DNA from: Reclinomonas americana ATCC 50394
Taxonomy: Eukaryota
Reading direction: 5' to 3'
Length of the DNA stretch: 40,861 nt
NCBI GenBank assembly: GCA_048213135.1
Contig: PS015309.1
Coordinates: 1 to 40,861 of the forward strand
In this document: piece by piece, positions 10,430 through 34,974 of the stretch
How positions within the stretch are numbered: position 1 is the first letter of the stretch
How the letters are laid out: every line of letters begins with the position of its first letter
The notes under the pieces: generated by a model
Told to the model about the DNA's origin: nothing
The model's input: the letters and a program-made list of their open reading frames with translations, nothing else
The model's database searches: none
Translations under genes and position numbers: made by a program

Positions 10430-13400
10430 TCAATTGGCGGTCTTCTCGCTGAGAACAGTGATAATCGCCTGCAACCGCCGCTCGAGTGGCGACGATGGCG
10501 CGAAACCCGGTGCAGCGGCTTGCAGGTGCAGCAGAATGTTCTCGCCCACCGGCTTTACGTGCGGCAGCACCGACTCGTCGGTCGGATCGAAAGCCTGTGC
10601 CGCCTGCAACAGCCACGATAGGCGCAGCTCGCAGTCCGCCGACGTTGCACTGATGAACAGCGCCAACTGCCACGAGAGACAAGTAATCAGCAACCACGGA
10701 TCAAACACACTCTCCCTCCCTCTCCCCTCTCCCCTTGCACTCACCTGTTGCATCAGTGACAGAATGATGCCGGCGGAGAGGCGGGGCCGCGCAGAGGACA
10801 AAACGTTGCGCACATCCAACAACTCGCACGCCTGCACCAGCAAGCGGATATCCTGGTAGCGCAGCACATTGACAAAGGCCTCCTCGTAGTTGCCGGCATC
10901 CAGCAGCGGTCGAATCGACGCCAGGGGCGAGACGGCTTCGGGAGCAGCCGCAGCCGCAGTCGTCGCCGGAGAAGCGCCACCGGCGGCGGCGATCGGCACC
11001 GAAGCCAGTGTGGCCTGCAACTCGGCCACTTGCCCTTGCAGTGAGCGAATGAGGGCGGCTTGCTCCGCAAACTCGCTGCGCGACGGCAGCTGCGACAGCG
11101 ACTGGCGGAACTCGGCCAACCACTCCTCCACTCGCGACTGCATGACACCACCGAGTGCCACGGAAATCTGCTGGAACATGGCGTTGACGACACGCTCAAA
11201 CTGCGGCAGCAGTGTGCTCTCGAGTGCGTTGCGGAACGTGTCGGCAAAGTCCATGGGCTCCGCCGAATGACGCGCCTCCAACTTGGCCATAGCGTGCGAC
11301 AGGCTCTGCTCCAACGGCTCCGTGACTGTACCACGCAGCTGCGCACACACGGCCTCCACCACTCGCGGCACGACACGACCCTTGGTCTGCTGTGAGATTT
11401 GCTCCACAATCACAGCCTCAATGTGCTCCGGCAAATCCTGATTGAGTGTCTCCGCCACCGAGCTGTGCAATCGCTGCAGGCTCTCGTTGATGTGCGCCAT
11501 TCGTTGATCGTGCTGTCGTTGCATCTCCGACCCTACAAGCAACACGGTATGTCAAACAACAACAATGTGACGCACGAGTATGCAAACTAGGAGAGAAAAG
11601 AAAACGCAACGGATCTCGTCGCGGTGTCGAGTCATGACACTCTCCACCGACGACAGCAGTCGCGACTCCAAGCGCGCGAATGCGTCCTCGTCCATTGGCG
11701 ATGGGGCGGACTTTGATATTGCACATGGATGAGAAAATGGAGGGCCCCGCGCAGCACAATGACACGTTCATCTCACCATGCGCTGCGATCCGGTAATCAG
11801 AGGCGATCCGCGGCCGTGCACAGGAGCCATGAATTGCATGTGTCCTGCAGCGTGTGAGCGTTCAGTACCACTGACTCCACACCAGCAACTGTGGAAGCAC
11901 ACTCACCGCCACCGACGCCACCGGCTGGTGTGTTGGCTGGAGTCGCAGAGGCGCGCAGATCGGAGGGCGTGGCGGGCGAGTTCACGGCGGACTGGAAACG
12001 AAGAACGCCCGGCGGGCTTTCCACACCATTGTCGCTGCTGGCAATCGACGAAGCCGACGTGCTGTTCTTGGCCTTTTTCGACAGCAAGGCCTCCAGCTGC
12101 GCAGCATCGATGCCTGGCAGATGGGGGCCTGCTGCTGCACACAAGCAAACAGAAAACCGTGCACTGTCATTCAGCAACACATTTTCTGGCACGCAGCANN
12201 NNNNNNNNNNNNNNNNNNNNNNNNNNNNNNNNNNNNNNNNNNNNNNNNNNNNNNNNNNNNNNNNNNNNNNNNNNNNNNNNNNNNNNNNNNNNNNNNNNNN
12301 NNNNNNNNNNNNNNNNNNNNNNNNNNNNNNNNNNNNNNNNNNNNNNNNNNNNNNNNNNNNNNNNNNNNNNNNNNNNNNNNNNNNNNNNNNNNNNNNNNNN
12401 NNNNNNNNNNNNNNNNNNNNNNNNNNNNNNNNNNNNNNNNNNNNNNNNNNNNNNNNNNNNNNNNNNNNNNNNNNNNNNNNNNNNNNNNNNNNNNNNCAGG
12501 CGACTGCGACATCATGGCAGACACGGCGGCAGAGGCCGCAGCCAGCGTCGCAGTGGGCACATTGGAGGCGGGACGAGGTGGCGGTGGCTTGACTGGATTC
12601 GCTGGCGCATCAGTGAGACCACGGAGGGCGGCTTCCAAATCGGCCATTCTCAACGCCCCGGCTGGTGGCGCTTCCGAAGCAGGTGCTGGCGCTGCTGGTG
12701 CGGGTGCCGCTGCTGGTGCTGCTGGTGCTGGTGCTGCTGGTGCTGCTGGTGCTGGTGCTGCTGGTGCTGCTGGTGCTGGTGCTGCTGGTGCTGGTGCTGC
12801 GCTCACTGTCGCGGGCGCTGGAGATTCTGGAGTGTCACACACAAATCGAGCATGAACATCAGGGCACGGACATGGCAGAGCGAGCAAAACAAAGAAAATC
12901 TCACCTGCACCAACGCCATCGTCGGCCGGCATGCATTGATGCGGCGCAAACATGTACACCTGCACCAACAGAAACAGACGGTAAACAATCACATTCATGT
13001 TGATGGTCGCCTTCTTTTCACTCTGTGCGGTGCGCGACGTACCTGAATCACGTCCGTGTTGACAGCATACAAGCACACTTGTGTGTTGTCGGGGTAGGCC
13101 TCCAGCCGCGCCACGCACGAAAGAATGGAGGTCTTCGTGGAGAACTGGCACAGGTGCCGCAAGACTGCACTCGACAAGCAACATTGAGTGATTCGTCAAT
13201 CGCACTTCCAGCCACTGCACTCCACTCCACCGACTTACCTCGGCTCCACGCGCCAACGTCGTTCTCGACTTGCGGAATTTGGTAGTTCACGACATAGAGC
13301 TCCTGACCCTTGATGTCGGCCACAAACAGGAACGGGGCGCTCGTGCAAGCGCACACGCGGTTGAGGAACTCGGTGGAGCTGGCACCGCCAAACCGCGCCG

Positions 13401-14802: not shown

Positions 14803-17577
14803 ATGTCAGGCGCTGGTGCAGTTGCTGCTGTTGCAGCTGGTGGTGGTGGTGCCAATGCGGCTGCCGCACCCGCAGTCAGCCCACTGAAGAAGATCCTTAT
14901 CCAGGCAGTGGTGCGTCTCTCACACACTGTCGCTCTTTCTCCACCACACACTCACCCTCGCACTTTGCACAACCACACCAGGTGATGATTGTCATGTACT
15001 TTGTGTTCCGCAACCTCTCAAAGCACGTGATGCCGTCGGTGCCGACGGTGGCGCCTGTCGACGACAATGCATCGCCGCTGTCGGGATTGATTCCCGTGCG
15101 CGTCGTCTCCGCCGATCGGCCCCTCCTAGTCACCACGCAAGCTGTCGACACTGATGATGATGATGGAGGCGGAGGGGGAGGAGGAGGAGGAGTAGTGGCG
15201 GAGAGTCACGTGCAGTTGCCGCCTGTGCCGCGACAGGGCATCAGTGCCAAGGCGCTGCGCAGTGTGCGGCCGCAGTGGGCGCCGTCGCAAAAGATGGTGT
15301 GCCGCGCACGGTGTTTCCTGTGTGTATGTGTGTATTAGGGTGTGCGCTTACATTGCGTGGGGTAGACGGTGCGAGTGTTCTTGTCGGTGGAGGAGGAGTT
15401 GTCGGACTTTTCCGAGCCGGCATGGGAGGTGGCGGGCTTGCGCATGTCGGCTGAGGATACGACAGTGTATGCACACAACATGACGCTGCCGGCGTCGCTG
15501 GTGCAGCACCTGATCGCCAACGGGACGGTGTATGCGCATGCCTTTGCGACTGCGCCTGGCGCGGAGATCAACCCGCGATCAGTCAACTTCAAGCCGTCGC
15601 TGTCGTACGGAATCGTCGTTCGTTGAGTTTCTCGCTCGCCTCCTCTTCTTCATCATCATCTTCTTCTTCTTCCTCTTCATGCACGTGGTGTGTGCTCACA
15701 TGGCAGCCACTCGACAGCGCTGAACCACTTTGAGGTGGTCAAGGCGAAACCCAAGACCCGCAACTTGCTGTTCGACGAGGCAACGCCGTCGGACGACACG
15801 ACGGCGACGCAAGACGTCGCCACAGTGGACACGGACGCAGAGTTCGAGGTGGATGTGCATGGCGAGCCACTGCCACCACCGCAGCAGTGGGTTTCGGTGT
15901 TCCATCCTATCATGGACCTGCAAATGATGGCCTCGCCGCTGACCATTGCACTCGCCGATCTCCCTCCGAACGCGCTGCGTCGTTGCGTCCCTTTTCACCT
16001 GTGTGATAATGCTACTTATTTACCCACACGTGGACGAACACAGAAATCACCTTTACCTCCAAGGGTAAGTACTACCCGCCGTTCTTCATCAACAACTTCT
16101 GGACCATGTCGGAGCAGAACATTCCGGTCAACGCCACCGTGGAGGAGCTGCCGCTGAACATGTCTTTCTCATTCACCACGGTGACCAAGTGGATGTTTAC
16201 GAATCAGATGGAGAACTCGCTGTCGATGCAGGAGAATCTCACCGCCATGTCCTCGAAAGACAAGGACGAGTACAAGGTGTGTGTGCATTGTGCGCTCTCC
16301 TCATCATCTCGCCTATGCGCCTCGCCAACCAGCACGGTGTGACAGCGCATTCTGTTGGAGACGAATCCGTGGTTGCTCGGTGTGACCGTGGTGGTCTCGA
16401 TTTTGCACATGGTCTTTGACTTTTTGGCGTTCAAGAACGGTGTGTGCACTGTGCATCCTTTGTCTCTCTTTGCTTCTTGACTCACTGGATAGGGTGGCAG
16501 ACATCATGTTCTGGAAGGACCGCAAGAGTCTGGAGGGGCTGTCGATACGCACTGTGCTGCTCAACGCCTTTTGCCAATTCGTCATCTTCCTGTACCTGCT
16601 CGACAACGAGACCTCACTGCTGATTCTGGCCTCGGCCGGCATCGGCGTTTTAATTGATGGGTGGAAGATCACCAAGGCCTGTAACGTGTCGGTACGGTGG
16701 GTGCTGGGTGGACGCATCCCAGTGCCGTCGTTCCGCGCCAAGGAGTCGTACGAAGACTCGGATACCGATAGGTTCGACAAGGAGGCCATGCGCAAGCTCG
16801 GCTATGTGCTGGCCATTCTGCTGTTCGGCTACAGCATCTACTCGGTGTTCACGAACGAATTCAAGGGCTGGTACTCGTTCGTGTTGTCGACTACTGTCGG
16901 CGCCATTTACGCGTTTGGTGAGTCCCTGTCTGTGAACCAGCTGCGAAACCTCTGTGTTACCAACAATCAATCCATGTCGCAGGCTTCGTGATGATGACAC
17001 CGCAGATCTGGATCAACTACCGCACCAAATCGGTGGCACACATGCCGTGGCGTACGCTGACATACAAGGCACTCAACACGTTTGTCGACGATCTCTTCGC
17101 GTTCATCATCAAGATGCCGACGCTGCATCGACTCAGTTGCTTCCGTGACGGTGTGCTGCGGTTCCTTGTCTGTTTTTTGTGCATACACGCTCACGAGTCA
17201 CTCACCGGGGCCACTCGTGACCACCAGACATTGTGTTCTTTATTCTCATGTGGCAGCGCTGGATCTACCGAGGTTTGTCGCAGTGTGTGTGTGTGTGGTG
17301 AAATTTGGAGCAGCAGAGTGGTGAATTGGTGATTGTGCGTGCAGTGGACCCGAAGCGTGCCAACGAATACGGACAGCGTCTCATTGACGAACAGGCGGTG
17401 GTACCAGCAGGCGGCGATGCAGCCTCTGCCGACCAACAACAACCGGTGCAACAGGAACCGGCCAGCCCGTCGTCTGCTGCAGGTGCGATTGCGGAGAAGG
17501 TCACATCCAGTCAGCAGCAGCAGAAGCCAAAGGACAAGGGTCAGCGCGGAGAGCAGTCAGTGAGACAACGCAAGTAA
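14803..17577 (+). CDS. CLPTM1: CLPTM1-family multi-pass membrane protein (putative lipid scramblase family)
   Basis: Motifs NGTVYAHAF, KPKTRNLL, YYPPFFINNFW, RILLETNPWLLGVTVVVSILHMVFDFLAFKND-IMFWKDRKSLEGLSIRTV, GFVMMTPQIWINYRTKSVAHMPWRTLTYKALNTFVDDLFAFIIKMPTLHRLSCFRD and QRWIYR-VDPKRANEYG. TAA ends at 17577. CLPTM1 versus CLPTM1L is not resolved. Confidence 0.93.
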
Positions 17578-17681: not shown

Positions 17682-18342
17682 TTATTGCACACGTGCATTC
17701 GCGTGAGCGGCAAGCATCTGCTCCATCATTAACCGCGTCTCCTGGAGCAACCGCTGTTGCTCACGTAATGCCTCCTCCACCTGCCGCCTCTGCTGCACAA
17801 GTTCGGCCGCTTGTCGCGTCAGCTCCTCACGTTGTGTGCGCATCTCCTCACGCTGCACTCTCAACTCCTCCTCCTGACGCTGCCGCTCCGCCCGCGCCTC
17901 GGCCGCCTCGGTGCGCAGTTGCTTGATCTCCACGTCCTGCTCGCGCATCGCTTGCACAATGATGGTGGTCATGCGACTGTAGTCGACGAGCTTGTAGAAC
18001 GAGCCGTCGCGCTTGTTGGCGCGCAATATGAGTTCCGGGAACTCCATTTCGACCTCCTGAGCAACAAAGCCGAGATCAAGGCCCTTGTAGCCGTCTTTCT
18101 CGGCCTCGCTGTTCCAGCGATAGCGCACACTGCGTAGGCCGAGCAGGCGATCGCGCACCGGTTCCATCGGCACAATGTCCTCTTTCTGTGCGCGTAGCGA
18201 ACACAGCACAAGAAAATGAGTGCATTATAGCAGCAATCGAGGCGAAACACAGATGGCGAACCAGTCTCATATCCGACGGCGCGCCGAGTTGGATCGGGAA
18301 ATCAGTGCACGAGGATGTGATCCAACGCGGAGAGGTGCCACT
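17682..18342 (-). other. Peptidase S74 / intramolecular chaperone autoprocessing (ICA) domain, last two exons (18262-18342 and 17682-18185)
   Basis: The S-D-x-R-L-K motif has Ser at 18274-18276 and Lys at 18183-18185, with intron 18186-18261 between L and K. It is followed by Y-x-W, G-F-V-A-Q-E-V, F-P-E-L and V-D-Y, then a long coiled coil. Confidence 0.92.
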
Positions 18343-21300
18343 CTGTAGCAGTGCATGGACATGAACAAAGGTGATGGATTGACGTGCGAGGGAAACGGCA
18401 CGCAACTGCGTACAGAAGATTGTACGACGCATTGCATCCGGGATTCGCCGATAGCACGTACAGACCGTTGCGGAAGAAGACCGTATTGACTGTGCACAAC
18501 GAGGGGTGAGGCACGAATACGGTAGCTGGCGACAGTACGTTGCCAGTGCACTCAACTAGTTGCGGCGCCCGTGAATGTGCTGGTGGTCGTCACGCTCAGC
18601 GACGTGCCGACAGAGACCGAGGTGGCGACCGTCAGCGACGAGTTTAGCGTTGTCGCGTTGGTCACTGTGAGAGTGTCGCCAACGGAGACAGCGCCGCCGA
18701 CAGTGAGACTGGAGGTACCGAGGATGCTGACATTGCCGCGCAGGTTGATGATTGGCGAAAACACAGTGGTTGAACTGAGCGCGCCAATGTTGCCGATGCG
18801 CACATTGAAGGAGCTGGTGTTGGTACCGAGGTTCACGTTGGCGTTGCCACCTTCGCCCGCCAACAGTGACCTGTGCGACAGCACAGAGCCAGTCAGTTGC
18901 CATACACACACTCTCACACTCGTCCCGCAAACATGGTGAACGCACAGATCGCCGCCGTTTGCCGCGTTGCCGTCACCGGCTTTCAGTTCGACATTCATGC
19001 CACTGACACCGGTGCTGGAGGCAGCGTAGCCTCGAATGCTGAACACGCCGGTGAAGTTTGGCACGCCCAGAATAATGTACTTGTTGGAGGGGTCTCCGCG
19101 ATCTAGTGACCAAATAAATGTGTGTGAGAGGCCAGCAGAGGAACAATTCTGTGTGGTCGGTCGCGCGGACGCAACTGGCATCGATGTAGATGCGGAGTGC
19201 AATGTCAAACGTGAGCTCAATGTCGGAGCGCACGATATTCGTACGCACGCCACCGACAGCATACTGCGCGGACATTGCGTCAGTTGGGCACAGCACGGAA
19301 CGTGGAGGAAGGACACACTGTCGAAAACGCAACTGTCTCGCCAGAGGTGGTGAGACCGCCATTGATCTGTGCTGACTGCTCGCACAGCAGCTGTGCGAGT
19401 AAACAAGGCATACTCAGTCTCACTAATAACCATGTGTGTGCATGAGAAAAAAACGCACAAGATTGCGAATGGCAGTCGACGTGCCGATACCGGGACTGCC
19501 GACAACGACGCCGGTGGAGGCACCGCCGAGAAGCAGAGTCTGTCGACAAGGTGAGTATGACGGCGCGAAAGAAACAGGGCGGAGAGGAATACGGCAGACA
19601 AGACTCACCGACGCCGTGTCGAGCGTAATGGTGGATGCGCTCTTCAGCAACACACTGGACGCCGTGCTTTGGATTTGCACGGCGTTCGCCACGGTGGCAG
19701 TCAACGACACCATGGTGAACACAGACAAGCCACTCTCGATGGTGATCTGCAATGCCGGTCAGTAACTGGCGTGCGTGTGTGCCACAAATGAAACGAAAAC
19801 TCGCTCGTACCGAGCCGCGAGTGGACCCAGTAGGGCCGGTTGATAGCACTAGATCGCCACCGGTGACGGCTCCCGCGCCAGCGTCGTGAATGGCGCTCTC
19901 AATACGAAGCAGCGGTGGGGATGTTGGCGCCGCCATACGATACACCGACGTGTGTCGGATAGTGGTCGTGGTGTCTGAAGCAGCAGCACACCACCGCATG
20001 TCATTTTCGTCGTCCAAACGGGTAGCACACACCGACTTTGTACTCGCATACCTTGACGACCAACGCGGAAGACATTGTCGATACCGCGCACAGGACTCGT
20101 GGTGGACAGCTCCAGCGGCGAATTCCACTGCGTGAGAGAGAGAGTGTGTAAGTCACCAGTGAAACGAGATGCCGTGGCACTGATCCCACACTTGCGCACC
20201 ACCACATTCGAAGCCGTGACAGTCACAGGCGCAGCACTGTTGCCGATGCTGAGGCTGGCAGTCTGTGTGACACCCATGATGACGGCGCCATTACCGCTGC
20301 TGCCGGAGCCGCCACGCAGGACTCTGCATAAGCACGCCGTGAGTGATTCAAATCATAGTGTGGCTTGATGAGCACCTCCGCGCCACTCACAAGTCGCCAC
20401 CGGCGCCGCCTGTCGTCTGCTGGCCCTGCATCACAAACGGACTCGGCGATCCGGCAATATCCGACGGCGACAACGTGAGGGTCGTTGTCGGTGTGCCGAG
20501 ATCGTAGCCAAAGAAGAAGCGCCCAGCCGTGGCAATGATGCTCACAGTCGTCGCACTGAAGATGGTGGTGGTCTTCAGCTGAGTCGTCAGGGTCATGTCC
20601 TGCTGCACGGTCAACTGCACACGAGGAGCGAGAATCCTCCGACGTGAGAAGAGCAACCCGGTGAGGCGTGCGGGGACTGCAATAACGACAAACCGGTCCC
20701 TGGATGGTGGTGGGCTTGCCGGTCGCAGCAATGGTGATGCCGGTGAGCGACGCGTCGAGTGTGCCGATGGTGATTTGCGTGGCATCCAGTCTCAGAGTGT
20801 TACCAGTGATGCTTACTGTCTTGGCGTCCACCGAGATCTGTCCGCCACCACCAGGGCACCACGATGAGCTGACCGGGAGGGGGCACAAAAATGAATGGAT
20901 TGCGTGCAGACGCACCAAATCGGTGGTTCGTGTGGACGAGCCGAGGTACAGATTACGGCTGGTGCCTTGACCAGGGGCGATGCGAAGCGCAATGGCAGGC
21001 AATCTGCGAGGCCATGAAGCACAATACAAGGCGCCAATCAGTGCGGAATCAGAAGAAATGAGAGCAACGCCCCAGACGCACGCTACAGCGTTGTCAATGG
21101 TAAACAGATTGACTAGCGAGGTGGAGCTCGGAGTCCCCTGCAGCCGCACAGTGTCGACGGGTGCCGCAATGCCACCAATGACGGTGGCGGCTCCACCGAT
21201 GCTGAGACCGCCGGCCAGCTGAGCAGCAATGCAACAAGTCAACACAAGCAGCAGCGTTCACCAGCTTGACGATCCACATCACATACGCACCGTGGTGGTG

Positions 21301-24300
21301 CCGGAAACAGAGAGAGTTTGCTGCATGGATACGGCGCCCTGCACCACCACCGGAGTACTGGCGGCACCCAGGTAGACGGACGCCGAGCCTGCACTGCCAA
21401 TCCACACCGCGCCAGGTGCGCCGCCCGCACCGGCACTCCCACCATCAACAAGCCTACAAAAAAATTGTGACCGATCAACAACAGGCCACAAGCATTGCAA
21501 TTGGTGGTAGTGTGAGGTGGACGCAACACGTCGCCGCCATTCTTCATGGCTTCCGCAGTGGTCTGGCCGATCAGCTGCAGACTGACACCATTGTCCAGAG
21601 CACGAGACGCCAGTTGCATCACAAACGGAGTGGTACCCGGTTGCACAAGCGACAGCAGTCCGCTGGCCGGTGCAACACTAATGGCGCCAGCCGCACTCGA
21701 CAGTGTACTCATCTGCACTGTGGTGGCGCTAACAGAAGGCGCAGTCAACAGGCCGGTCGACACAGTCAGATTTTGTGTGACCACCATCTACATGAGGTGT
21801 GTGAGAGAGCACGTCGATGGCGACGACGAGCATCGACGACGCAACATCGCCAAGCGCGCGCACGAGATTGGTCGTGGTACCGAGTCGGACCTCCGAGCTC
21901 GCTGCCGGGCCGTTCGCCTGCACCACAAAGTGGCCGGTGCTGGTCGACAGCGTCACAGTGTTCTGCACTGTCGCAGTCAACGAGCGCGACGTCAGAGTGA
22001 TCTGTTTTGCCAGGCAGCTGTCAGTGTCACGTCAACAACAAAGTACAAAGCAGAAACTCCCAAACCCCATTGGTGCGGAATCCGGCAGCGCCAATCGTGA
22101 TGCTTCCGTCGACCGTGTTGGCACTGCTTTGACCGGCTGTGCAGTGCAGATTGAAGAAATAATGAGCACAGCAGCGACAGCACAGCCATCGGCAAGATAA
22201 CTCACCCTCGATGAGCAGGTCACCGCCAGTGCCGCCAGTCGCACCACGGCGAATGGTGAACGGCGTGCCAATGGCATTGTTGCCGAACTCCACGGCGTTG
22301 ATGCTGGACTGCACTTGGCCTGTGGTGAGGGCCAGTGTACCAACAGTGGCCGTTGATGTTACGCTCAGCACGCCTGTGGTCACCGTCGCACTGAAACTGG
22401 CGGTTCCGGCAATGGTCACGCTCGACGAAGCGTTGCCGATGGTCACATTGCCACGCGTTGTGCCTGTACACGAGACGGGCAGAAGAGGAGGAGGAGGAAG
22501 AGGGATGTTTGTACGCATGTCGAACGAATGACACGACACGCACACGAAGGCGAATCCTTCCTTACCAATCAGTGTCTGGCCGGCACCACCCGGTCCCGTG
22601 CCCGGATCCACCACACTGTCCGTCGAGTGAGTTGGTGGCCCACCATCATTTTTGCAGTGCAGCAAGGAGTGTCAGGGAACGCAACATGTTGCCACCGGCA
22701 CCACTGGCTGCAACCTGGCCAACGACAGAGAGAGAGAACGCTGCGCCAGTGGCGTCGGGACGCGTCAGAGTGAATGTTGCTGCAGTACCACCCAGTCTGC
22801 GCAACGCAAACAGTGAGGGAGGGGACGAGTAGACTGGCTGGGTGTACGACAATGGGCCAGAAGAGCAGAACCTCATGATGCCCGAGGCCGCAGAAATGGA
22901 CAGATCACCCGACGTGGTGGTAACGCTGCCGGTGCGCACGCCGCTGCTCAGTGTGGCCAGACCAGCAACAGTGAGCGTTCCAGTGGTCACAGTGACATTT
23001 CCCGCAATGGTGGCAGTGGTGCCAACGGATATCGATCGGGAGAACGTCGACTGTGACGTGAGAGAGGACGTGTCAAAAAAGCACAATCACGGTCGCAGTC
23101 AAGCGCAACCACGACTCACCGCCGAGTTCACAAGCAGATTGGTGGTGGCGGTGCCGACCTCCACATCGGCAGTCGACCCGGTACCAATGTTGATCTTGAC
23201 GGCACCAAACACATTGACAGTCTGACCGCGCATTGTCACCTGCACAGAAGCAAGTGTCAGTGCGTGTTTGTGCACGAGAAAGCATCATTTTTGCGCACCT
23301 GCTGAGCAGCATCATCGCCGACTGTGAGGAGTCCATTGGCTACGCTCGCGCTGTTGCGGCCACCACGAATGGTGATGCTGCCGCCGATCGTGGAACCATC
23401 ACCGCCAGCAACAACAACATCGCCGCCGGCGCCGCTGGCCACCGTCGCTCCCATCAACCACAACGGTCCAGGAGACCCCGACGATGCAGGGGCACGCTGC
23501 AAGCGGAAAGTGCTCGAGTCCGGATCACCAAACAGGAGCGACTGAGTGGTGGCCGAGGGCGAGATGAGGACAGTCGAGCCGGCGGACAACACCACGTTGC
23601 CCGTCACTCGCAACACGGGCGACGACACAAGAACGCGAGTGGTCGTGGACTTGCCCAACTCCACTTCGGATGACGTGAGCGTGCCGACACGCACTGCACC
23701 CTCCAGTNNNNNNNNNNNNNNNNNNNNNNNNNNNNNNNNNNNNNNNNNNNNNNNNNNNNNNNNNNNNNNNNNNNNNNNNNNNNNNNNNNNNNNNNNNNNN
23801 NNNNNNNNNNNNNNNNNNNNNNNNNNNNNNNNNNNNNNNNNNNNNNNNNNNNNNNNNNNNNNNNNNNNNNNNNNNNNNNNNNNNNNNNNNNNNNNNNNNN
23901 NNNNNNNNNNNNNNNNNNNNNNNNNNNNNNNNNNNNNNNNNNNNNNNNNNNNNNNNNNNNNNNNNNNNNNNNNNNNNNNNNNNNNNNNNNNNNNNNNNNN
24001 NNNNNNNNNNNNNNNNNNNNNNNNNNNNNNNNNNNNNNNNNNNNNNNNNNNNNNNNNNNNNNNNNNNNNNNNNNNNNNNNNNNNNNNNNNNNNNNNNNNN
24101 NNNNNNNNNNNNNNNNNNNNNNNNNNNNNNNNNNNNNNNNNNNNNNNNNNNNNNNNNNNNNNNNNNNNNNNNNNNNNNNNNNNNNNNNNNNNNNNNNNNN
24201 NNNNNNNNNNNNNNNNNNNNNNNNNNNNNNNNNNNNNNNNNNNNNNNNNNNNNNNNNNNNNNNNNNNNNNNNNNNNNNNNNNNNNNNNNNNNNNNNNNNN

Positions 24301-27300
24301 NNNNNNNNNNNNNNNNNNNNNNNNNNNNNNNNNNNNNNNNNNNNNNNNNNNNNNNNNNNNNNNNNNNNNNNNNNNNNNNNNNNNNNNNNNNNNNNNNNNN
24401 NNNNNTAAAGCGCACCGACTTGGAGGTGTTACCGGCGTTGCCAATGAGAATGGAGCCCGGAATGCCACCAGTCGACGGAGCGCCTCCCAGGATTCGCAGA
24501 TCGCCACCATCGCCGGCAGTTGCACGAGTGGTACGCTGCAATTGGAACTCGGTGCCCACGGCGGTGCCAACAAACAGCACGGAACCAGAGGACACGGAAA
24601 CAGTCGGCGACGCCGACGTCATGACAAGAGTACCGCCGACCTGCAGCGTGGTCGACTGCACAGTGGTGGTCGCACCCGTGCGCCCCACAATCACTGAGAC
24701 GGCGCGCTCGGCGCCCACCAACACACTGCCGCCGACGGCTGCCGGAGTGGCGCCACTGTCCACGTATCTGTGTTGACATGGTGGCAGTGAGGGGGGATGA
24801 AAAAATACACGAACACGCAACGCCAACCCCTTGACCGTGACGCAACATAGCTCCTGGCGTGGAGCCAGTGGGACTGTCCTGGCCGAGCAACTTGAGGTCG
24901 ACGCCGTTGGAACCAGCCGAGGAGGGCCTCGTCACCACAAACACCGTGGAGGACGAGGACGTGCCCAGGAACAGCTGAGAGGACGCTGGCTCCAAACGCA
25001 GCGGTAGCGCACTGTCGGTAGTAATCGAGGCTCGAACGAGAAGACCGCCAATGAAGGTGGCCACCGGTGTCACTGCAAGGCTACCGGCAACGCTCACTGC
25101 ACCTCCGCTGCGTCCAATGGCCACAGACGGTGTGGAGGCGCCAGTGCCGAGTCGAACCTCGGTGCTCCCGTTCAAGTCAATCACTTGCGCTGTCGCACTT
25201 ACCTGTATCACGTGCGTGTCAGTGCACATGTTTTCTTCTGCTTCTTCTTATTAAAACCGCTTAACACACGAAACAGTAGCAGTACTCAAAGACCCGAGGA
25301 TCAACACTCCGGAGACCGCCGCTGTCCCAGTGCCGGGTGGCGGTGTGATACGCAGACTGCCACCGGCGCGGTTGGCCGCCGTGGGTGTCGGTCGCGTTAT
25401 GCTAAATGTTCCCTGGTCCTCAACGCCGAGAACCAGCGTCTGCGTCGTCGACGCCGTGAGAGCGCTGTTGCTTGACATGTCGATCGAGCCGAGAAACTGC
25501 AGGTGTGTCGCGCCAGTGAGCACCGAGCACGCAACGAGATGAAGAAGAAGACATGGAAGGCAGTAGTACCTGCACACTGCCCTGCGCAGTGACGGCCGAT
25601 GCAAACGTCGTCGTGCCAACCACACTGATCGAGTCGGCCGCCGCAGCTCCAAGCTGCACGGCGCCAGCAGCAAATGTCGCAGAGCCACGTCCTCCAGCCA
25701 GTATCCTGCCAGTGACGAGAGCGGATGAGAAACTGTGCGATCGGTGGACGTCGAGGGTCGCGGGCAGTACGCAACAGTGGGCCACCATTGCCGGAGGAGT
25801 TGTCCTGGCCAGCAAGGGTGGTCGACGTGGCACCACCACCTCCGCCGGCAATGGTGGGTCGTGTCACAGTGAAGCTGGCGCCACTGGCCGATGTGCCGAG
25901 AAGAATTCTCTGATTGGAGGACTGGATAGACAGGTTGCCGCCGGCAACGTCGCTCAACACTGGTGTCTGCACTCCGACTGTGACAGACACCTGGAGTGTA
26001 TCGTGGAATTCAGTCACTTATTACACAAGAGAGAGAGGGCGGAATCAGCGGCGACGCACCGTGCCAGCGATGGTGGTGGCACTTGTGGCTGACCCAATGG
26101 TGATGAGGGGAGTGGAGATGGTGCCGAGGCGCAGTTGTCCAATGGAGTCGACCGAGGTGATGGTGGCCGAGGTCACCGTCACTTGCGGGGTGCTGGTGGA
26201 CGCGCCGATTTCCACGTTGCCGGCAGAGCCACCATACACTCGCAACACATTGGTGACGCCTGGTCGGCGAATGGTGAAAATCGACTGCGCCGAGGTGCCC
26301 AGAATCAGATCCGACGTGTTTGGCGACAACAGTGTGGCGTTGTCCAGGCTCAGAGCGCCGAGGACAAGTGGGTTGACCGGAGCCAGGAAGGTCACCGGGC
26401 CGTTGAATGTGGTGTCGGAGAGCACTTGCAGCGGTTTGCCGGACTGACCGACACGTACCTGCATGCACAAAGCAGGGACGTCGCCGTGTTAGTATCAACA
26501 CGCCCACCAGGAGATGCAATCGGCCGAGAGACGCACAGAGCCACTTGATCCACCAACGACCACGTCGCCGGGAGTCATGCCGCCACCCGCATCGACGTAA
26601 CTGCGGTACGACGGTGGTGAGTGAGAGAGAGACGAAAATCGACAGTGGGCATTTGACACGACGCAACACATCGCCTCCACGTGCACCCGTGGCCGTCTGA
26701 CCAAGCAACGATGTGCGAGAGCCTGCTGCCCCGTCGCTGCGACTCGGACGCCCGAGGATGAACGCGTCAGTGTCGCCAAAATTAACCTGGTCGCCATAGG
26801 GCGCCACCGACAACGCCGACACGGACGACGATGTGGTGATGGTGGCAAGCGAAAGCGCGCTTTGCATCTACGCTCCACCCCCACAATCAATTGAGTGAAC
26901 GTGCGATGATTGACGGAGGGAGAGAAAGGGGGCGACGCAACCTGGACGGTGCTGCTGCCCGCAGACAACACCAACGGCAGATCCGGCGAACTGATGCTGA
27001 ACTGTGATGCCGACATTTGCAGGGTTGCCGTGCTGCTGGTCACGGCAAGCGTGATGCGAGCGGAGCGCGCTGTTCACCCACGCACTGCGTATGAGACACA
27101 ATGCACAACACACAGAGGAGGCGTGAAGTCAAGGCACGCACATGAAAGCTGCGTCTGGAGCGACAACAGGCTGTCGTTGTCGGCGGAGAGCACAGACAGC
27201 TGATTGACGAAGGAACCGGTGGAGGGGAACGTGATACCACCAGCGGCCGGAATGGTGAGTGCCGTGATGCCGGCAGACGTGAGAATGCGCAATCCGACAG

Positions 27301-27403
27301 GATCGGCCACAATGGTGTAATACTCGGAGAGATCCGGTCGANNNNNNNNNNNNNNNNNNNNTTGCATACCACGCAGTGTCGAGTGAGACGAGGTGTCGCC
27401 CAT
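17682..27403 (-). CDS. Giant (roughly 2,300 aa, about 30 exons) tail-fibre-like Gly/Thr/Ser/Val repeat protein with C-terminal peptidase-S74 intramolecular chaperone and coiled coil
   Basis: Exons chain in frame from a putative MGDTSSHSTLR (ATG 27403) through repeats of the form F-x-I-x-R...L-x-L-x-GQ...GGD(L/V)-x-V-x-GG...G-x-V-x-IG to ..CTDFPIQLGAPSDMRL|KEDIVPMEPVRDRLLGLRSVRYRWN..LGFVAQEVEMEFPELI..LVDYSRMTTIIVQAMREQDVEIKQLR..*. Two gaps interrupt the model (23708-24405 and 27342-27361). Confidence 0.8.
23708..24405. other. Assembly gap inside the fibre gene
   Basis: Run of N. The repeat-type coding sequence continues on both sides. Confidence 1.
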
Positions 27404-27590: not shown

Positions 27591-28472
27591 TCATTTGCGC
27601 CGCAAGTCACGCAGCGCCGATTTCGAGCGTGCAAACAGCAGCTCCGACGAGGGCGCGTGAGCTGCAGTGCGTGAGGCCCATTGCGACAAAGAGTCGTGAT
27701 GCTGCCGGCCGCCGTAGCAGTGCCAGATGGTGACAAACGGCGCCGTCTTCTTGTGCGTGTCACTCACTCGCTTCTCGCGTGAGCCGGGCGGCGGAATGTA
27801 GGTGTACCGCCGACCGGCGGCTGGCACCAGATAAAAGGGGAACTGGGTGCGCGCCACTGCATCCTCGTAGTAGTCCTTCTTGTGCATAAAATTGGGCGCA
27901 AGGAGGAACCAAGGACGACTTGATTGGCTGCAGAATCGAGCGATGCGCTGCAAGTGATCTCCGCTGTATGGCTACAGCTCTCATCATCAGCGCCGTCGAC
28001 AGCAGCAGGATGCACCAGGACGAAAAACACCAGACGCAACTGGGTTCGTCAGCAGCACGTCGTACTCCTCCACTTCGCCACTCTCCCACTTGGCGTAGCA
28101 GTCCTCGTTTCGATTGTAGACGTTGGTGAAGCCGAGAGCGGCCATGCGCTGCACCACGCCACCGGCGCAGTAATACGGGTCTGCAGGCCACAGACGTGGT
28201 CAGCAATACGTAGCCAGACAGGTATGGACATCGCAACCACCTACCATAGATCCGCAGCTGACTCGGCGTCTTGCCCAGCATGGCGGCCAGCTGGCGCAAC
28301 ACCGGAGCAATGTCCTCGTACGCCTCTGGCGGTGTTTCGCAGTGGTCATCCTCGTCGACCTCGAATGCATACGCCACAGCAGCTGCTGATGCTGCAGCTG
28401 TTGTCGTTGTTGTTGTCGTGGTTGTTGTGGTGCTCTCCTCCTTNNNNNNNNNNNNNNNNNNNNCGAGACGAC

Positions 28473-28544
<72 letters not shown>

Positions 28545-28664: not shown

Positions 28665-28978
28665 CACGACGCGACTTGGAGCAGTGTGGGACAGAGAGTG
28701 CATGAAACAGGACGCGAGGCAGGCGAAGAGGGAAGATGAATCTGAGCAAGAGAAATCGGTTTTTTGCTTGAGGGTTGTTGGAGAGCGGGACTGTGTGCGC
28801 GTGTGTCTGCGAGTGTTGTGCGTGTACGAGCTGCTCGAGTGTAGAGCACCGCATTTGGATCGCCAGCCAGCAAGCAGCGTACTCGTCATCTTGTCGTGTC
28901 GCGTGATCGACAACGAGTTGTTCGCTTTTCCTCCTACACAAGAATCTCTGGATCGTGTGTCGACGCCCATCGTCGACG

Positions 28979-31900
28979 ATGCGAACGTTACGAGGCGAGA
29001 TGCGAGTGCCACTGCTCTGCGTTGTGCTGCTGCCGGTGCTGCTGTTGTTGCTGTGCGCAAGTGCAGTTGGTACGTGTCACACGTTTGCATCGCGCGAAAG
29101 AGAGCAGTGAATCGCCGTGCCCGTCATCTGACTTGCATGTGTGTGTCATAGTGCGGGCCGATGAGTTTGTGGTGCGCCACGCCCATTGCTCACGACAGCT
29201 GACGCTGTCGACGACCACGATTTTCGCACCGGCGGCACTGTGTGCCGAATTGCATGACGCCGAGACGGTGGTGGACTTCTCTGTTTCGTTTACCATGAAG
29301 AAGCCGACTGGTCCGCTCTACGTGCGCGTCCATCACCTGACGACGGAGACGAGTTTGAGCGCGTCGGCCCACCTCGACGGTCGTCCAGTGCCGGTGCAGA
29401 TCTCGGGTGAGTTTTCGACATTCTTCGTGCCGGCCGGAACGTCGACAGTGGCGATTGAGGCCACTGCCTCGCTTGTGCGCATCGAGTACCAGAGCGCCGA
29501 CGCACGGAACACCAATGCGGAGTGGAGCAACGCTGCCGAACTGGTGGCGACAACGATTGTGGCCACGGGCGCGATGGAGTGCGACCCGCTGACCACATGC
29601 TCCGGCGGTGGCACATGCAACACCGACGGCACATGTGCGTGCTTCTCTGGCTTTGGTGGCGCCAACTGTGCGTGCAATCCGTCGGTGACCTGCCGCGGGC
29701 ACGGTCGTTGCAACGCCGACGGAACGTGCCAGTGCTTCCCCAACTGGAAGGGAGGTGTGTAGTGTGTGCGCACCGTGCACCCGCAGCGCAGCGTTGAAGG
29801 AAGACACTGAGTCGCGCGCCTGCACAGATCAATGTGCTTCGTGCAACACGGACTGGTTCGGAGCCGAGTGTTCGCGCTACTGCAACGCGTCGCAGACCTG
29901 GTACGTACATGTCGTGCGCACGGGTGAGGTGTTGAGACAGACCACTGACCACTTGAGAACTTGCTTGTCGACGTCAGCCGTGGCAATGGATCCTGCAGTG
30001 CCGGCGACGGTGCATGCCTCTGCTTTGCTGGCTTTGGAGGATCGAACTGTGCGTGTGCCAAGTCCACCTGCGGCAACTATGCCATTTGTGATCCGACTGG
30101 TGTTCTCGGCGAGTGTGTGTGCCCGGCCGGCTTCGGCGGACCTGCGTGCACATGCTCCAACGCAATCAACTGCAACGGCAACGGCTCGTGTCGTGCCGAC
30201 GGCACCTGCCAGTGTGATGCAGGTGCTGGCGGTCCGAACTGTGCGTGTCGCGATGTCGTCGACTGCAGTGGACATGGTGCGTGCCAAGCCAATGGTTCGT
30301 GCTTGTGTGCACAACCGTTTGGAGGCAAGAGCTGCGCCTGCGACGAGAGCAAGTGGTGAGTGATATTTGAAAACCCCCCATTTTTTCGTATGTGTCGCTG
30401 AGCAACACTCGCCGCCTGTTGCAGCACACCGGGTCGCAGTACCTGCGACAAGAACTCCACCGACGGCTCATGCTCGTGTTTGCCTGGCTGGTTCGGTGCG
30501 GACTGCCAGTGCGATCCCAACACGTGTGGCAAGTCGGCCGGTCGTGGAGACTGCGCAGCCAAGGGCACGAGTGGCGCCTGCGCGTGCGCCGCTGGATTCG
30601 GTGGGCCTGGTTGCCAGTGCTCAGACGCGGTGAACTGCTCCGGCAATGGCACCTGCAATGCTGACGGCACCTGCACCTGCAAGGCTGGCTTTGGTGGCAA
30701 GGACTGCAGTTGTGTCGAGTCGTCGTGCTCGGCCGCCGGACACGGTCGCTGTGATCCGAACAGCACCACTGCGGCGTGCTTGTGTGACAACGGCTTTGCC
30801 GGTCTGCATTGCTCATGCTCACAAGCCAGCTGCGGCTACAACAGCAATCCTGCCGTCTCACGTGGTTCCTGCGATCCGACCAGTGGCAGCGGTGCGTGCC
30901 AGTGTGCGGCTGGGTGGGGTGGGCGGAACTGTTCATGTTTGGAGTCCGGATGCGGCCATGGTAAGTGCAATCCATCCGCATCCGACGGCTCGTGCCTGTG
31001 CGATGCACCGTACACGGGTGCCGACTGCAGCTGCAATTCGACCACTGACTGGTGAGGGGAGAGAGAGAGAGAGAAGCCGCAGCGTGTGATGATTGTTTGT
31101 TGAATTTAACGTTTGTTCGCTGCACAGCTCAGTGACTCTCGGTCAGGGGCAGTGCGACAGCAGTGGGCTGCGCGGCGCTTGTGTGTGCGGCATTGGTTTC
31201 GACGGCCTCCATTGCTCATGTCGCAATGCCAACTGCAAGAACAGCACCTTCTGCGATCCGTCGGCAAGTGACGGTAGCTGCCTGTGCTCGGACTCGTTTG
31301 TCGGCAAAGATTGCGGCTGCGACGGAGCTGTCGAATGGTGAGTGAGAGTTCTGCAGGCGACTACGTGTGGACGTAGGCTTACCACACACTTGCAGCAATG
31401 TGAGCAACAACGGCGTGAAGCAGGGTTCGTGCGACGCTCATGGAACCAACGGTCAGTGCGCATGCGAGAACGGCTGGGTCGGCAGCACGTGTCAGGTGGC
31501 CTGCAATGCTGCCACCGACTGTTTCGGCAACGGGACGTGCAATCCCGACGGCTCATGCGCGTGCTTTGAGGGTTTCGGCGGCCTGAACTGCGCGTGCGAC
31601 AGCCGTCACTGCAGTGCGATTTCGTCGCGCAGTCAGTGCAACGCGCTGGCCACCGATGGCTCGTGCATCTGCGAGGCTCCGTGGAGTGGTGCCGACTGTC
31701 AGTGCAACTCGCAGTCTGCCTGCTCGACTGCCCTCGGTCACGGCCAGTGCGACCCGCACGGTACTAACGGCGCGTGCGTGTGCGAGCCAATGTGGGGTGG
31801 TCGCGACTGTTCGTGCTCTGAGTTGCGAAGAAGAAGAAGAACAGCATCGCAGCGGTCAGCTGTAGTGCACTTGTGAATCTCACCCCACCACTGCCTGTGT

Positions 31901-34869
31901 GAACATACAGAACCTCGTGTGGCTTCCCGTCGCGTGGTTCGTGCGATCCGCTGGCCACCGCCTCAAGCTCGTCGCAGTGCATTTGTGCGGGAAACTACAC
32001 CGGTCGTGACTGTGGCTGCGATGCGGCTGCTGACTGCGGTATTGCGAATGGTCGCGGAGAGTGCGACGCCAGTGGTGTGAACGGCAAGTGCGCGTGCCAC
32101 GGAGGATTTGGTGGCCAGAACTGTGCCTGCACCGAGTCTGTGTGCGGTGCCGACAGCGGGCGAGGCAAGTGCAACCCGACCGCCACAGACGGCTCGTGTG
32201 CCTGCATGGCTCCGTGGACTGGCCTCGACTGTGCGTGCAACATGGCCTCGGACTGCGGCGTCGGCGATGGTGAGCGTGACTGCAAGGGACAGCGCTGCGC
32301 GCTTGTGAGAAACTGACAGCTAGTGGTCTCTTGCAGATCGCGGGCGCTGCAACACTGCAAGCACCGAAGGCCGATGCATCTGCAACAGTGGTTTTGGTGG
32401 CCGTCAGTGCGACTGTCTGCATTCTTCGTGCAATCAGCCGAACGGCATGTGCGATCCGGAGTCGTTCACCGGTGCCTGCCTTTGCAATTCACCTTGGTGC
32501 GTCACGCAACAACGGTCCGTCGTGTACCATGCACTTGCAGTGCACTCACTCGCACGCATATTGTTACAGGACTGGTGCCGACTGCTTGTGTGACTCTAAG
32601 TCATTCTGCAACGTCAGCAGTGGCCAGGTACGGCACCAAAGAATAGACACGAGCAACTATTTGTGCAGAGGAGCTGTTGCTGATTGACGAGAGTGCTGCT
32701 ACACCCAGGGTTCGTGTGCAACGAACGGCACGCACGGAAGCTGCACATGTGCTGCCGGTTGGCTCGGCGCCACCTGCTCCGACGTGTGCGACTCGGACAC
32801 GTACTGCTCGGGTCGCGGAACGTGTGGTGCGAACTCCACGTGCACGTGCAACGCGTCGTGGACCGGCAACGCCACATGTTCAGAGTGCACGCCCGGCATG
32901 TACGGAGCCAGTTGTGATGAGTCATGCGCAGTGTGCGACACTGCTGGCACAGAGCGGTGCTCCGACGGCACTGCTGGAACCGGTTGCGTGTGTCGTGCCA
33001 CATTTACAGCGGCGACGTGCGACACTTGCGTGGCGGGTAGCTTTGGTGTCTCTTGCACACCGTGCGCGTCGTGTGTGGCCAGCAACACCACCAGCTGCGA
33101 CAGCGGGCGCACTGGGCGGGGCTGCCAGTGCAAGACTGGCGCCGCTGGTCCGCTGTGCCAACACACCGACATTGCCACGTGCAACGGCCGTGGTGCGGCG
33201 CAGGCCGACGGCTCGTGCATCTGCTCGGGTAACTTTGCTGGTGCCTCCTGCACCGAGTGTGCCAAGGGCTACTTTGGCGCCAACTGCAACAGCGCTTGTG
33301 TCACATGGTCTGTTGGCAGTGGCGACGCATGTATGTAGTTGACGTCGCACTCATATCCTCCACCACCACAGCGCGCTAAACAACACACTCCAGTGCGAGG
33401 ACGGCATCAGTGGCCGTGGATGTGTGTGCCAGGCAGGCACAGCCGGATCTCGGTGCCAGTACACGGATGCGCAGACTTGCAGCGGTCATGGCGTGGCACA
33501 GGCTGATGGTTCGTGTCGGTGCGACTCACGCTGGCAGGGTGCCGCGTGCTCGGAGTGTGCCGTCGGCTACTTTGGCGCCGACTGCTCCAGTTCATGTGCC
33601 TTGTGGTGCGCTTCGTGTGTTCTTCCTCCTTTGCTTTCGTGTTCACACAATTTTTGCCAACGCCACGTCCCTGTTCTCCTTCTCCAGCACGGCCGAAAAC
33701 ACGGCATCATGCAGTTCGGGTCTTACCGGCACCGGCTGCATCTGCAACGCCGGCGCCGTCGGTTCGCTGTGCGAATTCTCCGACGCGGTGACGTGCTCTG
33801 GACACGGCACAGCGCAGACCAATGGCACTTGCCTGTGTGCGACGCCCTGGAGTGGTACTGCGGCCGACTGTTCCAAGTGCGCCGCTGGTCTCTTTGGCAA
33901 GACTTGCACCGATTCGTGCACCTCGTGTTTCGCCAACGGCACCACGTCGTGCCTCTCCGGCACCACTGGCTCGTGCGTGTGTCGCACTGGGTTTGCCGGC
34001 AAGTTCTGCGACGATTGCACCACTGGCCGCTTCGGCAGCGACTGCTCTGGCAGTTGCAGCGCATGGTAAGTGAGAGAGAGAGAGAGAGACTGTCGACACC
34101 CACGTGATGTGATGCTTACGCCCTTGCACACAAACGCACACACACACACAGCAACACGGAAAACAGTACAACGTGCGACTCGGGTCGTGCTGGCGGTTGC
34201 CGCTGCCGCAGCGGCACTGCCGGCCCTCTGTGTCAGTATTCGAACGAAAGCACGTGCTCAGGGCACGGAGTGGCGCAATACGATGGCTCATGCATCTGCG
34301 ATGCGGCGTGGAACGGCAATGCGTCGTGTAGCGAGTGCACCGTCGGCTTCTTTGGTAGCACGTGCCAGAACAAGTGCTCACAGTGCGACAGCACCGGAAC
34401 TGCATCCTGTGCGTCGGGCACGTCAGCAACAGCCGGCTGCAAGTGCGCTACGGGCTTTGCTGGCCTCCTGTGCAGCGACTGCGCGGCTGGCCGCTTCGGG
34501 GCACAGTGCCAGAGTCGTTGCGCCGATTGTGAAGCGCAGGGTACGCAGTCGTGTTCCGCGGGTCGCCAAGGCTCCGGGTGCGTGTGCAAGGCCAACGTAT
34601 TCGGCGCCAGCTGCGATCAGTGCGCCCCGACACAGCCGCTGTCGTGCACCTCGGCCAACAACGGCTCATGCAATCCAGCCACCAACAAGTGCGACTGCTA
34701 CCCGGGAGTCGGCGGTGCATTCTGCCAGTGTCGTCCGGTCGAGACCTGCAACGGCAAGGGCGTGTGTGCTATTGACGGCTCATGCGTCTGCCACTTCCCG
34801 TACGCCGGCGCCAACTGCACGGATTGTCTGCCAGGGTACAGTGGTCCCAGTTGCACCAAGGTGCAATAA
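28979..34869 (+). CDS. Large (roughly 1,600 aa) secreted EGF-like/laminin-EGF-like Cys-repeat protein
   Basis: Signal-like MRVPLLCVVLLPVLLLLLCASAV (ATG at 28979 or 29000) and a Cys-poor N-domain of about 140 aa. Dozens of CSGxGxCxxDGxCxCxxGFGGxxC repeats follow, switching after about 32750 to units with CxxC (C..C..GxFGxxC). The frame ends GPSCTKVQ* at 34869, with no TM segment seen. Confidence 0.85.
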
Positions 34870-34974
34870 TAGGAGGAGAGAGGGATACGATTTGTTAAGC
34901 GTTTATAGAGAGGGACTGACTGATAAGTGACGATGATGGAGACCATCTGTGTATGTTATTACGCAATGGTGGAC

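Follow-up and report, generated by a model that had tools for sequence, protein, structure and literature searches.

Whether a gene built like a viral attachment fibre can sit in a eukaryotic nucleus as an ordinary intron-bearing gene, and what its product would do there, is the question raised by a locus in Reclinomonas americana ATCC 50394. The window analysed here is the whole stretch of 40,861 nucleotides (positions 1 to 40,861 of contig PS015309.1, assembly GCA_048213135.1, forward strand), and the gene in question (hereafter the fibre gene) lies on its minus strand, from position 27403 to position 17682. An earlier note, made from the sequence letters, had read it as an intron-rich gene for a giant phage-tail-fibre-like protein ending in an autocleaving Peptidase_S74 (ICA) chaperone domain. 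Based on the computational analysis reported here, we consider it probable that the locus holds one nuclear gene, whose precursor trimerises through the ICA domain and a coiled coil, folds a stalk and a shaft, and cuts itself.

The domain that gives the gene its character lies mostly in the last exon. Taken alone, this exon matches the Pfam family Peptidase_S74 (PF13884) with an E-value (E) of 1.7e-9 (38.3 bits, against a cut-off of 22) over profile positions 5-57 of 58, and the preceding exon supplies the missing first positions, S-D-M-R-L ending at 18262 and K-E-D-I-V starting at 18185. In a hidden Markov model (HMM) of 20 S74 relatives, built without the gene under study, the spliced model was aligned across this junction at 117.6 bits, with its S-D-M-R-L-K falling on the consensus S-D-x-R-L-K. 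The roles of the Ser and the Lys as a dyad in the S-D-x-R-x-K motif are those known from the K1F endosialidase. In the alignment with the relatives (A2), which carry S-D-x-R-x-K, all invariant columns are kept, the dyad Lys being itself one of them. In PHROGs, 15 families match the last exon; 14 of these belong to the tail category, and a tail-fibre family scores best (E 1.4e-14). Against the PDB, the profile of the 20-relative alignment finds the long tail fibre of phage S16 (6f45) at 1.7e-19, the MyRF ICA domain (7dc3) at 1.2e-14, the fibre 8jov at 2.2e-12 and the GA-1 neck appendage chaperone (3gud) at 3.6e-7; the single sequence reaches 6f45 at E 0.28, and MyRF is not among the six entries up to E 10. 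The AlphaFold2 (AF2) model of the domain, with a predicted local distance difference test (pLDDT) score of 94.9, is a small alpha/beta core followed by a helix of ~100 residues, which agrees with the coiled coil that had been expected after the domain. With this model, Foldseek returned at E <= 0.001 only three chains of the MyRF ICA domain 7dc3 (E 2.9e-4), followed by the endosialidase chaperone 3gw6 and 3gud (E 0.07-0.2). Since profile, motif and fold all agree, the domain belongs to the Peptidase_S74/ICA family and its motif is intact, as had been claimed; from this motif, autocatalytic release of a C-terminal fragment is predicted.

Relatives of the domain were sought exhaustively with phmmer in 1.84 billion representatives; 12,177 proteins reached E <= 1e-3, 96 of them also 1e-10, and none 1e-30 (best 6.4e-17). 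Among 28 of the top relatives that were scanned, Pfam recognised Peptidase_S74 in all and an Ndt80-type domain in none; three contain YadA_head repeats, two a type-IX secretion sorting domain, and several of the relatives inspected have signal-peptide-like starts. On account of this Pfam content and of these starts, the nearest sequence relatives appear bacterial- or phage-like and not MYRF-like, none of them being close. Among longer proteins, two of 6,265 candidates are relatives of the last exon (both bacterial-looking), and a metagenome scan with this exon gave three distant loci (30-38% identity), none orthologous. Many of the best S74 relatives (P0003, P0005, P0006, P0014, P0018 and others), apparently bacterial surface proteins, have an unusual architecture of two or three S74 domains per protein; in some an S74 domain sits mid-protein, and some add YadA_head repeats and a type-IX secretion tail.

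Across the rest of the locus, the minus-strand stop-to-stop open reading frames (ORFs) between 17.6 and 27.5 kb are Gly/Thr/Ser/Val/Ala/Leu-rich segments in shifting frames, through which a single frame could be chained from 35 exons and 34 GT-AG introns (27403..17682, ab initio model). The chaining was performed by Viterbi dynamic programming (DP), with a codon table trained by coordinates on six long segments, GT-AG introns limited to 40-130 nt, and splice-site weight matrices learned from a first pass. Exons 33 and 34 were revised by eye to 18489-18407 and 18342-18262; the DP version had a shorter exon 33 and a 121-nt intron, and with the revised exon 33, which we prefer, the intron is 64 nt long and its donor, GTTGCGT, is the commonest one. 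The revised model starts with the ATG at 27403, ends with the stop codon at 17684-17682 and has 2,418 codons without the stop (240 of them X, from two N gaps), with no frame-breaking lesion in the 2,178 readable codons. Its 34 predicted introns are 43-121 nt long (median 73 nt), retention would break the frame for 27 of them, the other seven being frame-neutral, and the G+C content (GC) is 0.613 in predicted exons and 0.544 in predicted introns. The elements of the gene are the following.

17682..27403, minus strand: the whole predicted gene (ab initio DP model, revised at exons 33/34).
27142..27403, minus strand: exon 1, starting M-G-D-T-S-S at the first ATG past the stop of the upstream minus-strand ORF, with the 20-N gap 27342-27361 inside.
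18946..26867, minus strand: the shaft, 13 visible units of ~105-130 aa (alignment A1, anchors, self-BLAST, HMM).
23708..24405, minus strand: an assembly gap of 698 N within the shaft, which may hide about two more units and leaves the true length uncertain (N run).
18557..18870, minus strand: exon 32, a T/S/V/G-rich short-period beta stretch (predicted homotrimer; weak PHROGs match).
18407..18489, minus strand: exon 33 in its preferred form, the first half of the tip with the first Cys (sequence; in frame in the revised model).
18262..18342, minus strand: exon 34, the second half of the tip with the second Cys, ending S-D-M-R-L with the catalytic Ser (sequence, model).
18186..18261, minus strand: intron 34, 76 nt, phase 0, GT..AG, separating the Ser and Lys codons of the dyad (model).
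17685..18185, minus strand: exon 35, the catalytic Lys, the Peptidase_S74 core and the helix of ~100 residues, a coiled coil (Pfam, PHROGs, PDB, AF2, Foldseek).

The intron-rich, nuclear, minus-strand gene described in the earlier note is recovered in this model, with all the elements it had listed at the positions it gave: the T/S/V-rich stretch is the exon 18870-18557, the small tip with two Cys is formed by the exons 18489-18407 and 18342-18262, and the intron said to part the catalytic Ser and Lys codons is the 76-nt phase-0 GT..AG intron 18261-18186. In 26 readable minus-strand ORFs, no Ndt80-type or other Pfam domain was found at E <= 0.1, save S74 and sub-threshold noise. The 20-N gap comes 14 codons after the M-G-D-T-S-S start, which makes the N-terminus uncertain; the Gly2 and Ser6 of this start (27386-27403, minus strand) presumably fit the general N-myristoylation pattern.

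The stalk that precedes the tip was modelled as a trimer. Three copies of the 104-residue exon before the tip (18869-18558) gave an ipSAE of 0.87, the best of three controls reaching 0.00. In each chain the predicted contacts span residues 9-104; at least 95% of contacts are common to the runs (partner pLDDT at least 85), and, because partner residues are offset by about six positions, an intertwined beta structure fits. In the calibration, the mark was reached by 21 of 30 proteins solved as pairs of one chain and by none of 23 single chains; for eukaryotes it was reached by 17 of 29 pairs, yet by only one of the seven without an older solved relative, and by none of 30 single chains. Exon 32 additionally has a weak match to phrog_36281 (E 1.7e-4). 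The prediction, which we take as support and not as proof, points to a trimeric stalk, so that the trimeric beta fibre proposed before holds, as a prediction, for the 104 aa before the tip.

The shaft is a tandem array. An HMM built from the 12 units of alignment A1 (each from a single exon) finds 13 units in the visible sequence, where about 14 degenerate beta-type repeats had been noted; there is some circularity in this count, as the units behind the HMM come from the same gene. The unit is ~110 aa long, with the core L-x-L-G .. F-x-[ILV]-x-R .. G-G-D .. G-G-x-[IV]. Anchors of the form F-x-[ILVMF]-x-[RL] occur 13 times in the protein, 11 in the shaft (spaced 105-180 residues), one in the tip and one at position 2029, just before the anchor of the last repeat unit, and five long internal matches come out of a self-BLAST (E 5e-33 to 7e-18). 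The 698-N gap could conceal more sequence, and its borders are ordinary repeat units.

An independent check of the unit is provided by P0153, a 1,770-aa uninterrupted ORF from a metagenome contig (with P0154, of 1,905 aa, as a member of its cluster), in which the repeat HMM detects ten units at 104.9 bits; of 100 shuffled controls, five gave any match, the best at -73.9 bits. When 8,000 candidates were scored with the A1 profile, P0153 alone was recovered (whole-database E 1.3e-24). S74 is absent from this protein, whose C-terminus is instead a different globular segment of ~150 aa. No Pfam, PHROGs or NCBIfam model matches the shaft exons or P0153, P0154 has no Pfam or PHROGs match, and the repeat profile has no match among PDB sequences at E <= 10. 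Likewise, a single repeat unit as query found no relatives among 4,640 candidates of 199-2,000 aa, and scans of IMG/VR viral, metagenome and genome contigs found no loci related to P0153. In the ESM Atlas, whose results we take as leads only, the repeat unit resembles eukaryotic clusters (Chlorophyta, few members) at 0.92-0.94, recognition falling short of the usual mark, and P0153 is at just 0.77 to phage hypothetical proteins. Since no family matches and P0153 alone shares the unit, the shaft unit is an undescribed repeat common to two fibres with different C-termini; such sharing would correspond to the modular pattern usual in viral fibres. The globular end of P0153 (residues ~1625-1770) contains Cys, has no family match and may be a receptor-binding knob, and P0154 exceeds P0153 by 135 aa.

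The introns of the shaft bear on how the array grew. In seven units a phase-2 intron lies in the same alignment column (six after G-G-D/N/P, one after P-G-A), and three units read through that column without an intron. Judged from these positions, the pattern would fit a history in which units were duplicated together with their introns inside a eukaryotic genome, some introns being lost. The donor GTTGCGT is found in 8 of the 34 introns. Over the whole window, donors are mostly GTGCGT or GTTGCGT and the introns are very uniform (~55-100 nt); introner-like families are conceivable.

The fibre gene stands among genes of cellular type. A Pfam scan of the flanks, which covered the larger ORFs, found eukaryotic cellular families in six of 27 flanking ORFs, and these are located as follows.

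10433-11551, minus strand: EDC4_C (Pfam, flanking ORF).
16386-16988, plus strand: CLPTM1 (Pfam), convergent with the fibre gene and just downstream of it.
From 28845 and from 33343, plus strand: two EGF/teneurin-like ORFs (Pfam).
35471-39406, minus strand: the PhoLip_ATPase_C and E1-E2_ATPase domains of a P4-ATPase (Pfam).

On the upstream side, a minus-strand ORF stops at ~27591, ~190 nt from the fibre ATG, and the last exon of this neighbour has no Pfam or NCBIfam match. Across a likely intron of the same neighbour (27594-28200, minus strand), ..L-L-T-N-P and P-Y-S-G-D-H.. join into an N-P-P-Y-type motif, which we take to resemble those of N6-adenine or glutamine methyltransferases. The GC of the window is even apart from the N gaps, with no anomaly at the fibre gene, and GC at third codon positions (GC3) is 0.69 in the fibre gene and 0.69-0.78 in four flanking domain segments. 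The donor-type motif GTGCGT/GTTGCGT occurs at 18-28 kb 26 times on the minus strand and five times on the plus strand; elsewhere, the counts are 21 plus and 0 minus at 0-4 kb, nine plus and two minus at 30-34 kb, and 14 minus and four plus at 36-40 kb (the P4-ATPase). Because this strand bias tracks gene orientation, the fibre gene shares the splice signals of its neighbours. Matches to the repeat and S74 HMMs are confined to minus-strand ORFs within 17685-26867, with none elsewhere in the window. Since flanks, GC, GC3 and splice signals are all host-like, contamination or an intact integrated virus at the locus is very unlikely, and the argument that housekeeping flanks mark a nuclear gene is supported by CLPTM1, EDC4 and the P4-ATPase, together with the host-type splice signals.

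Some further features of the window lie around the gene. Its N runs are at 12199-12496, 23708-24405, 27342-27361 and 28444-28463 (two of them inside the fibre gene), and a long (GT)n/(CA)n microsatellite at ~28465-28540, which reads as a C-V-C-V run, adjoins a 20-N gap. The large plus-strand gene at 28845-34927, with teneurin-type EGF repeats and many GTGCGT-type donors, may encode a big extracellular protein.

How a fibre gene of viral type came to stand between cellular genes can be read in more than one way. Most likely, it descends from the fibre gene of a eukaryotic virus (polinton-like or giant virus), or of a bacterium or phage, and during a long residence in the nuclear genome it would have taken on host-type introns and composition. 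A tentative extension of this, which we regard as possible though doubtful, is that a host-captured, S74-chaperoned trimeric fibre has become a cellular gene, having gained dozens of introns and grown its shaft by tandem duplication, and now serves the cell; it could, for instance, be a structural or cortical fibre that assembles in the cytoplasm, or act as a decoy or blocker of the source viruses. The gene might, on the other hand, be the relic of an integrated eukaryotic virus (polinton-like virus, virophage or giant virus), a stranded fibre gene, silent or virally used, without any cellular role. The accessible part of a survey of polinton-like viruses (PLVs) gives this some weight, as it describes PF13884 as ubiquitous across PLVs from most eukaryotic groups, with fibres of up to 3.9k aa that have one C-terminal S74 domain and with many copies integrated in protist genomes (PMC12220804). 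Giant algal viruses enter here too: what is accessible of two further sources describes, in a metagenome-assembled genome of Heterosigma akashiwo virus (HaV), a 1,529-aa protein that combines an FhaB-like region with S74 at its C-terminus (10.64898/2026.02.06.704369), and genomic islands of giant viruses (chloroviruses) enriched in the S74 domain (PMC13620141). Additionally, a predicted N-terminus without signal peptide is expected for a protein assembled in the cytoplasm, and the sole relative of the shaft, P0153, is intronless and has a different globular C-terminus, being modular like viral fibres. A relic is nevertheless unlikely in our view, given 34 spliceosomal-type introns with donors matching those of neighbouring host genes, nearest coding sequences of cellular type (the CLPTM1 match at 16386-16988 and the family-less ORF ending at ~27591), no viral hallmark (capsid, packaging ATPase or integrase) among the 27 larger flanking ORFs scanned, GC and GC3 like those of the flanks, a frame unbroken over the readable codons, and IMG/VR viral contig scans that gave no relative.

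A different objection is that the 35-exon model has over-joined a number of distinct genes, or a repeat array that has partly decayed. The model is indeed ab initio and interrupted by N gaps, with 7 of its 34 introns frame-neutral; two internal exons start with ATG (26867 and 21787), and the DP required an artificial intron beside the large gap to hold the frame. But the gaps between segments are all at most 121 nt, with GT-AG borders, where the nearest real intergenic space is ~190 nt, and the units lie on one strand in one array, with the only S74 domain and the only stop at its 3' end, so we judge such a splitting to be quite improbable. A further point against it is that an S74 fibre shaft without its C-terminal chaperone would miss its folding nucleus.

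It is scarcely credible that the gene encodes a divergent membrane-tethered transcription factor of the MYRF/MrfA type with its DNA-binding domain hidden in the gaps, even though no eukaryotic carrier of the domain is better studied than MYRF and its ICA structure (7dc3) is the best Foldseek match (E 2.9e-4), for none of the 26 minus-strand ORFs over the exons has an NDT80_PhoG or MRF C-terminal domain, the frame stops right after the coiled coil without a transmembrane (TM) helix or luminal part (the earlier note had seen no TM helix either), the C-terminal part contains no hydrophobic window, the opposite-strand CLPTM1 match at 16386-16988 leaves scant room for more exons, the sequence of the domain places it closer to phage and bacterial types (NDT80 in none of the 28 top relatives), and the body of the protein is a beta-repeat fibre.

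According to the reading that we prefer, that of one nuclear gene for a self-processing trimeric fibre, the product would be a precursor of more than 2,400 residues with the build of a viral attachment fibre: ~13-15 divergent beta-rich units, the T/S/V stalk, the two-Cys tip, the ICA domain and the coiled coil. The C-terminal domain and the coiled coil would bring three chains into register, and this register would act as the nucleus from which the intertwined trimeric beta stalk and the shaft fold. The Ser-Lys dyad (S-D-M-R-L-K) would then cut at the conserved Ser, releasing a fragment of ~173 residues and leaving a stable trimeric fibre. The domain, its motif and fold, the trimer of the stalk, the cellular flanks and the host-like composition and splice signals are computed results; it is from these that we infer expression, cleavage and the site of action of the fibre. 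Because no signal peptide is visible, cytoplasmic assembly, as in viral fibres and in the cytosolic part of MYRF, is weakly suggested, and a secreted scale or extrusome would not fit well.

Several observations weigh against this reading. The exon model is an ab initio prediction throughout, two N gaps (23708-24405 and 27342-27361) interrupt it, and some exon borders are uncertain, because retention of 7 of the 34 introns would leave the frame open. At the predicted N-terminus, which the 20-N gap interrupts, no signal peptide can be seen, and the predicted protein has no convincing TM helix (the top KD19 hydropathy window, 1.89, lies within a beta-type repeat), so that an extracellular role is unsupported. 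The trimer job used three copies where its calibration used two, and the score may come from solved viral fibres that the model remembers. The shaft has one relative only, P0153, and the AF2 monomer of one repeat unit, with a pLDDT of 59.8, was unusable for fold search. No orthologue was found by phmmer among the 1.84 billion representatives, the closest S74 relatives being merely 25-48% identical. Lastly, introns at homologous positions are unalike beyond the splice sites (best pair 18, against shuffled maxima of 13-20), and, since their bodies are no more alike than shuffled controls, they may have arisen by repeated insertion at a proto-splice site.

Among phage parts that eukaryotes have reused, the ICA domain is a classic case, and its only studied cellular use, MYRF, keeps just the cleavage module. 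If the doubtful extension given above, capture of the fibre as a cellular gene, is true, the gene would be a second, MYRF-independent eukaryotic domestication of the phage ICA domain and the first to keep the fibre itself. An intron-rich copy among housekeeping genes would show that a whole self-assembling fibre can pass to a host genome. It would offer a tractable case for understanding how viral structural genes become cellular, how introns are gained or copied with repeat units, and how a cell uses a long protease-resistant trimeric fibre. The shaft, as an undescribed repeat family, and the stalk, confidently predicted as a trimer, are worth a structure, and the value of the finding hinges on transcript and protein evidence. 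In the titles and abstracts of a limited literature collection, no description of an intron-bearing cellular S74 fibre gene was found.

The comparison with known systems is where the overall interpretation of the earlier note needs to be changed. Its intact S74 domain, its intron-rich nuclear gene, its separation from MYRF and its trimer (as a prediction) all stand; it had compared the gene with phage tailspikes and MYRF only, and so missed the closest class. With MYRF and Dictyostelium MrfA, the gene shares being a eukaryotic nuclear gene with an ICA domain for trimerisation and self-cleavage (cf. PMC3828593); it differs from them in the absence of an Ndt80-type domain, a TM helix and a luminal region, and in having the ICA domain terminal, after a fibre. 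With the phage chaperones 3gw6 (K1F endosialidase), 3gud (GA-1) and 6f45 (S16), it shares the family, the fold, the S-D-x-R-x-K motif and the place after a trimeric beta stalk, whereas the gene itself is eukaryotic, nuclear and intron-split and its protein several times longer than a typical phage fibre. The helix after the domain, of ~100 residues, is also longer than in the 20 aligned relatives. P0153 and P0154 have the same shaft unit, but they lack S74 and end in another segment of ~150 aa, and P0153 is one uninterrupted ORF.

As far as the accessible parts of the sources cited above describe them, the closest known class is that of the large modular S74-terminated fibres of polinton-like and giant algal viruses. 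These have in common with the protein studied here a very large, modular and repetitive build, a single S74 domain at the extreme C-terminus and a presumed role as trimeric attachment fibre. Their shaft modules include laminin_G_3, collagen, adenovirus fibre, BppL_N and phage tail repeats (PMC12220804, in its accessible part), and it is by such text descriptions only that the present shaft is set apart from them, so a PLV fibre with the present shaft unit may exist. Of the marks of an integrated viral fibre, the single C-terminal S74 domain in a large modular protein is present here and the neighbourhood of a viral element is absent among the 27 larger flanking ORFs scanned: the viral fibre genes lie inside viral elements, whereas this one is alone between cellular genes. 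What is distinct in Reclinomonas americana is, in summary, this solitary position, the 34 host-type introns and a shaft unit without a described family.

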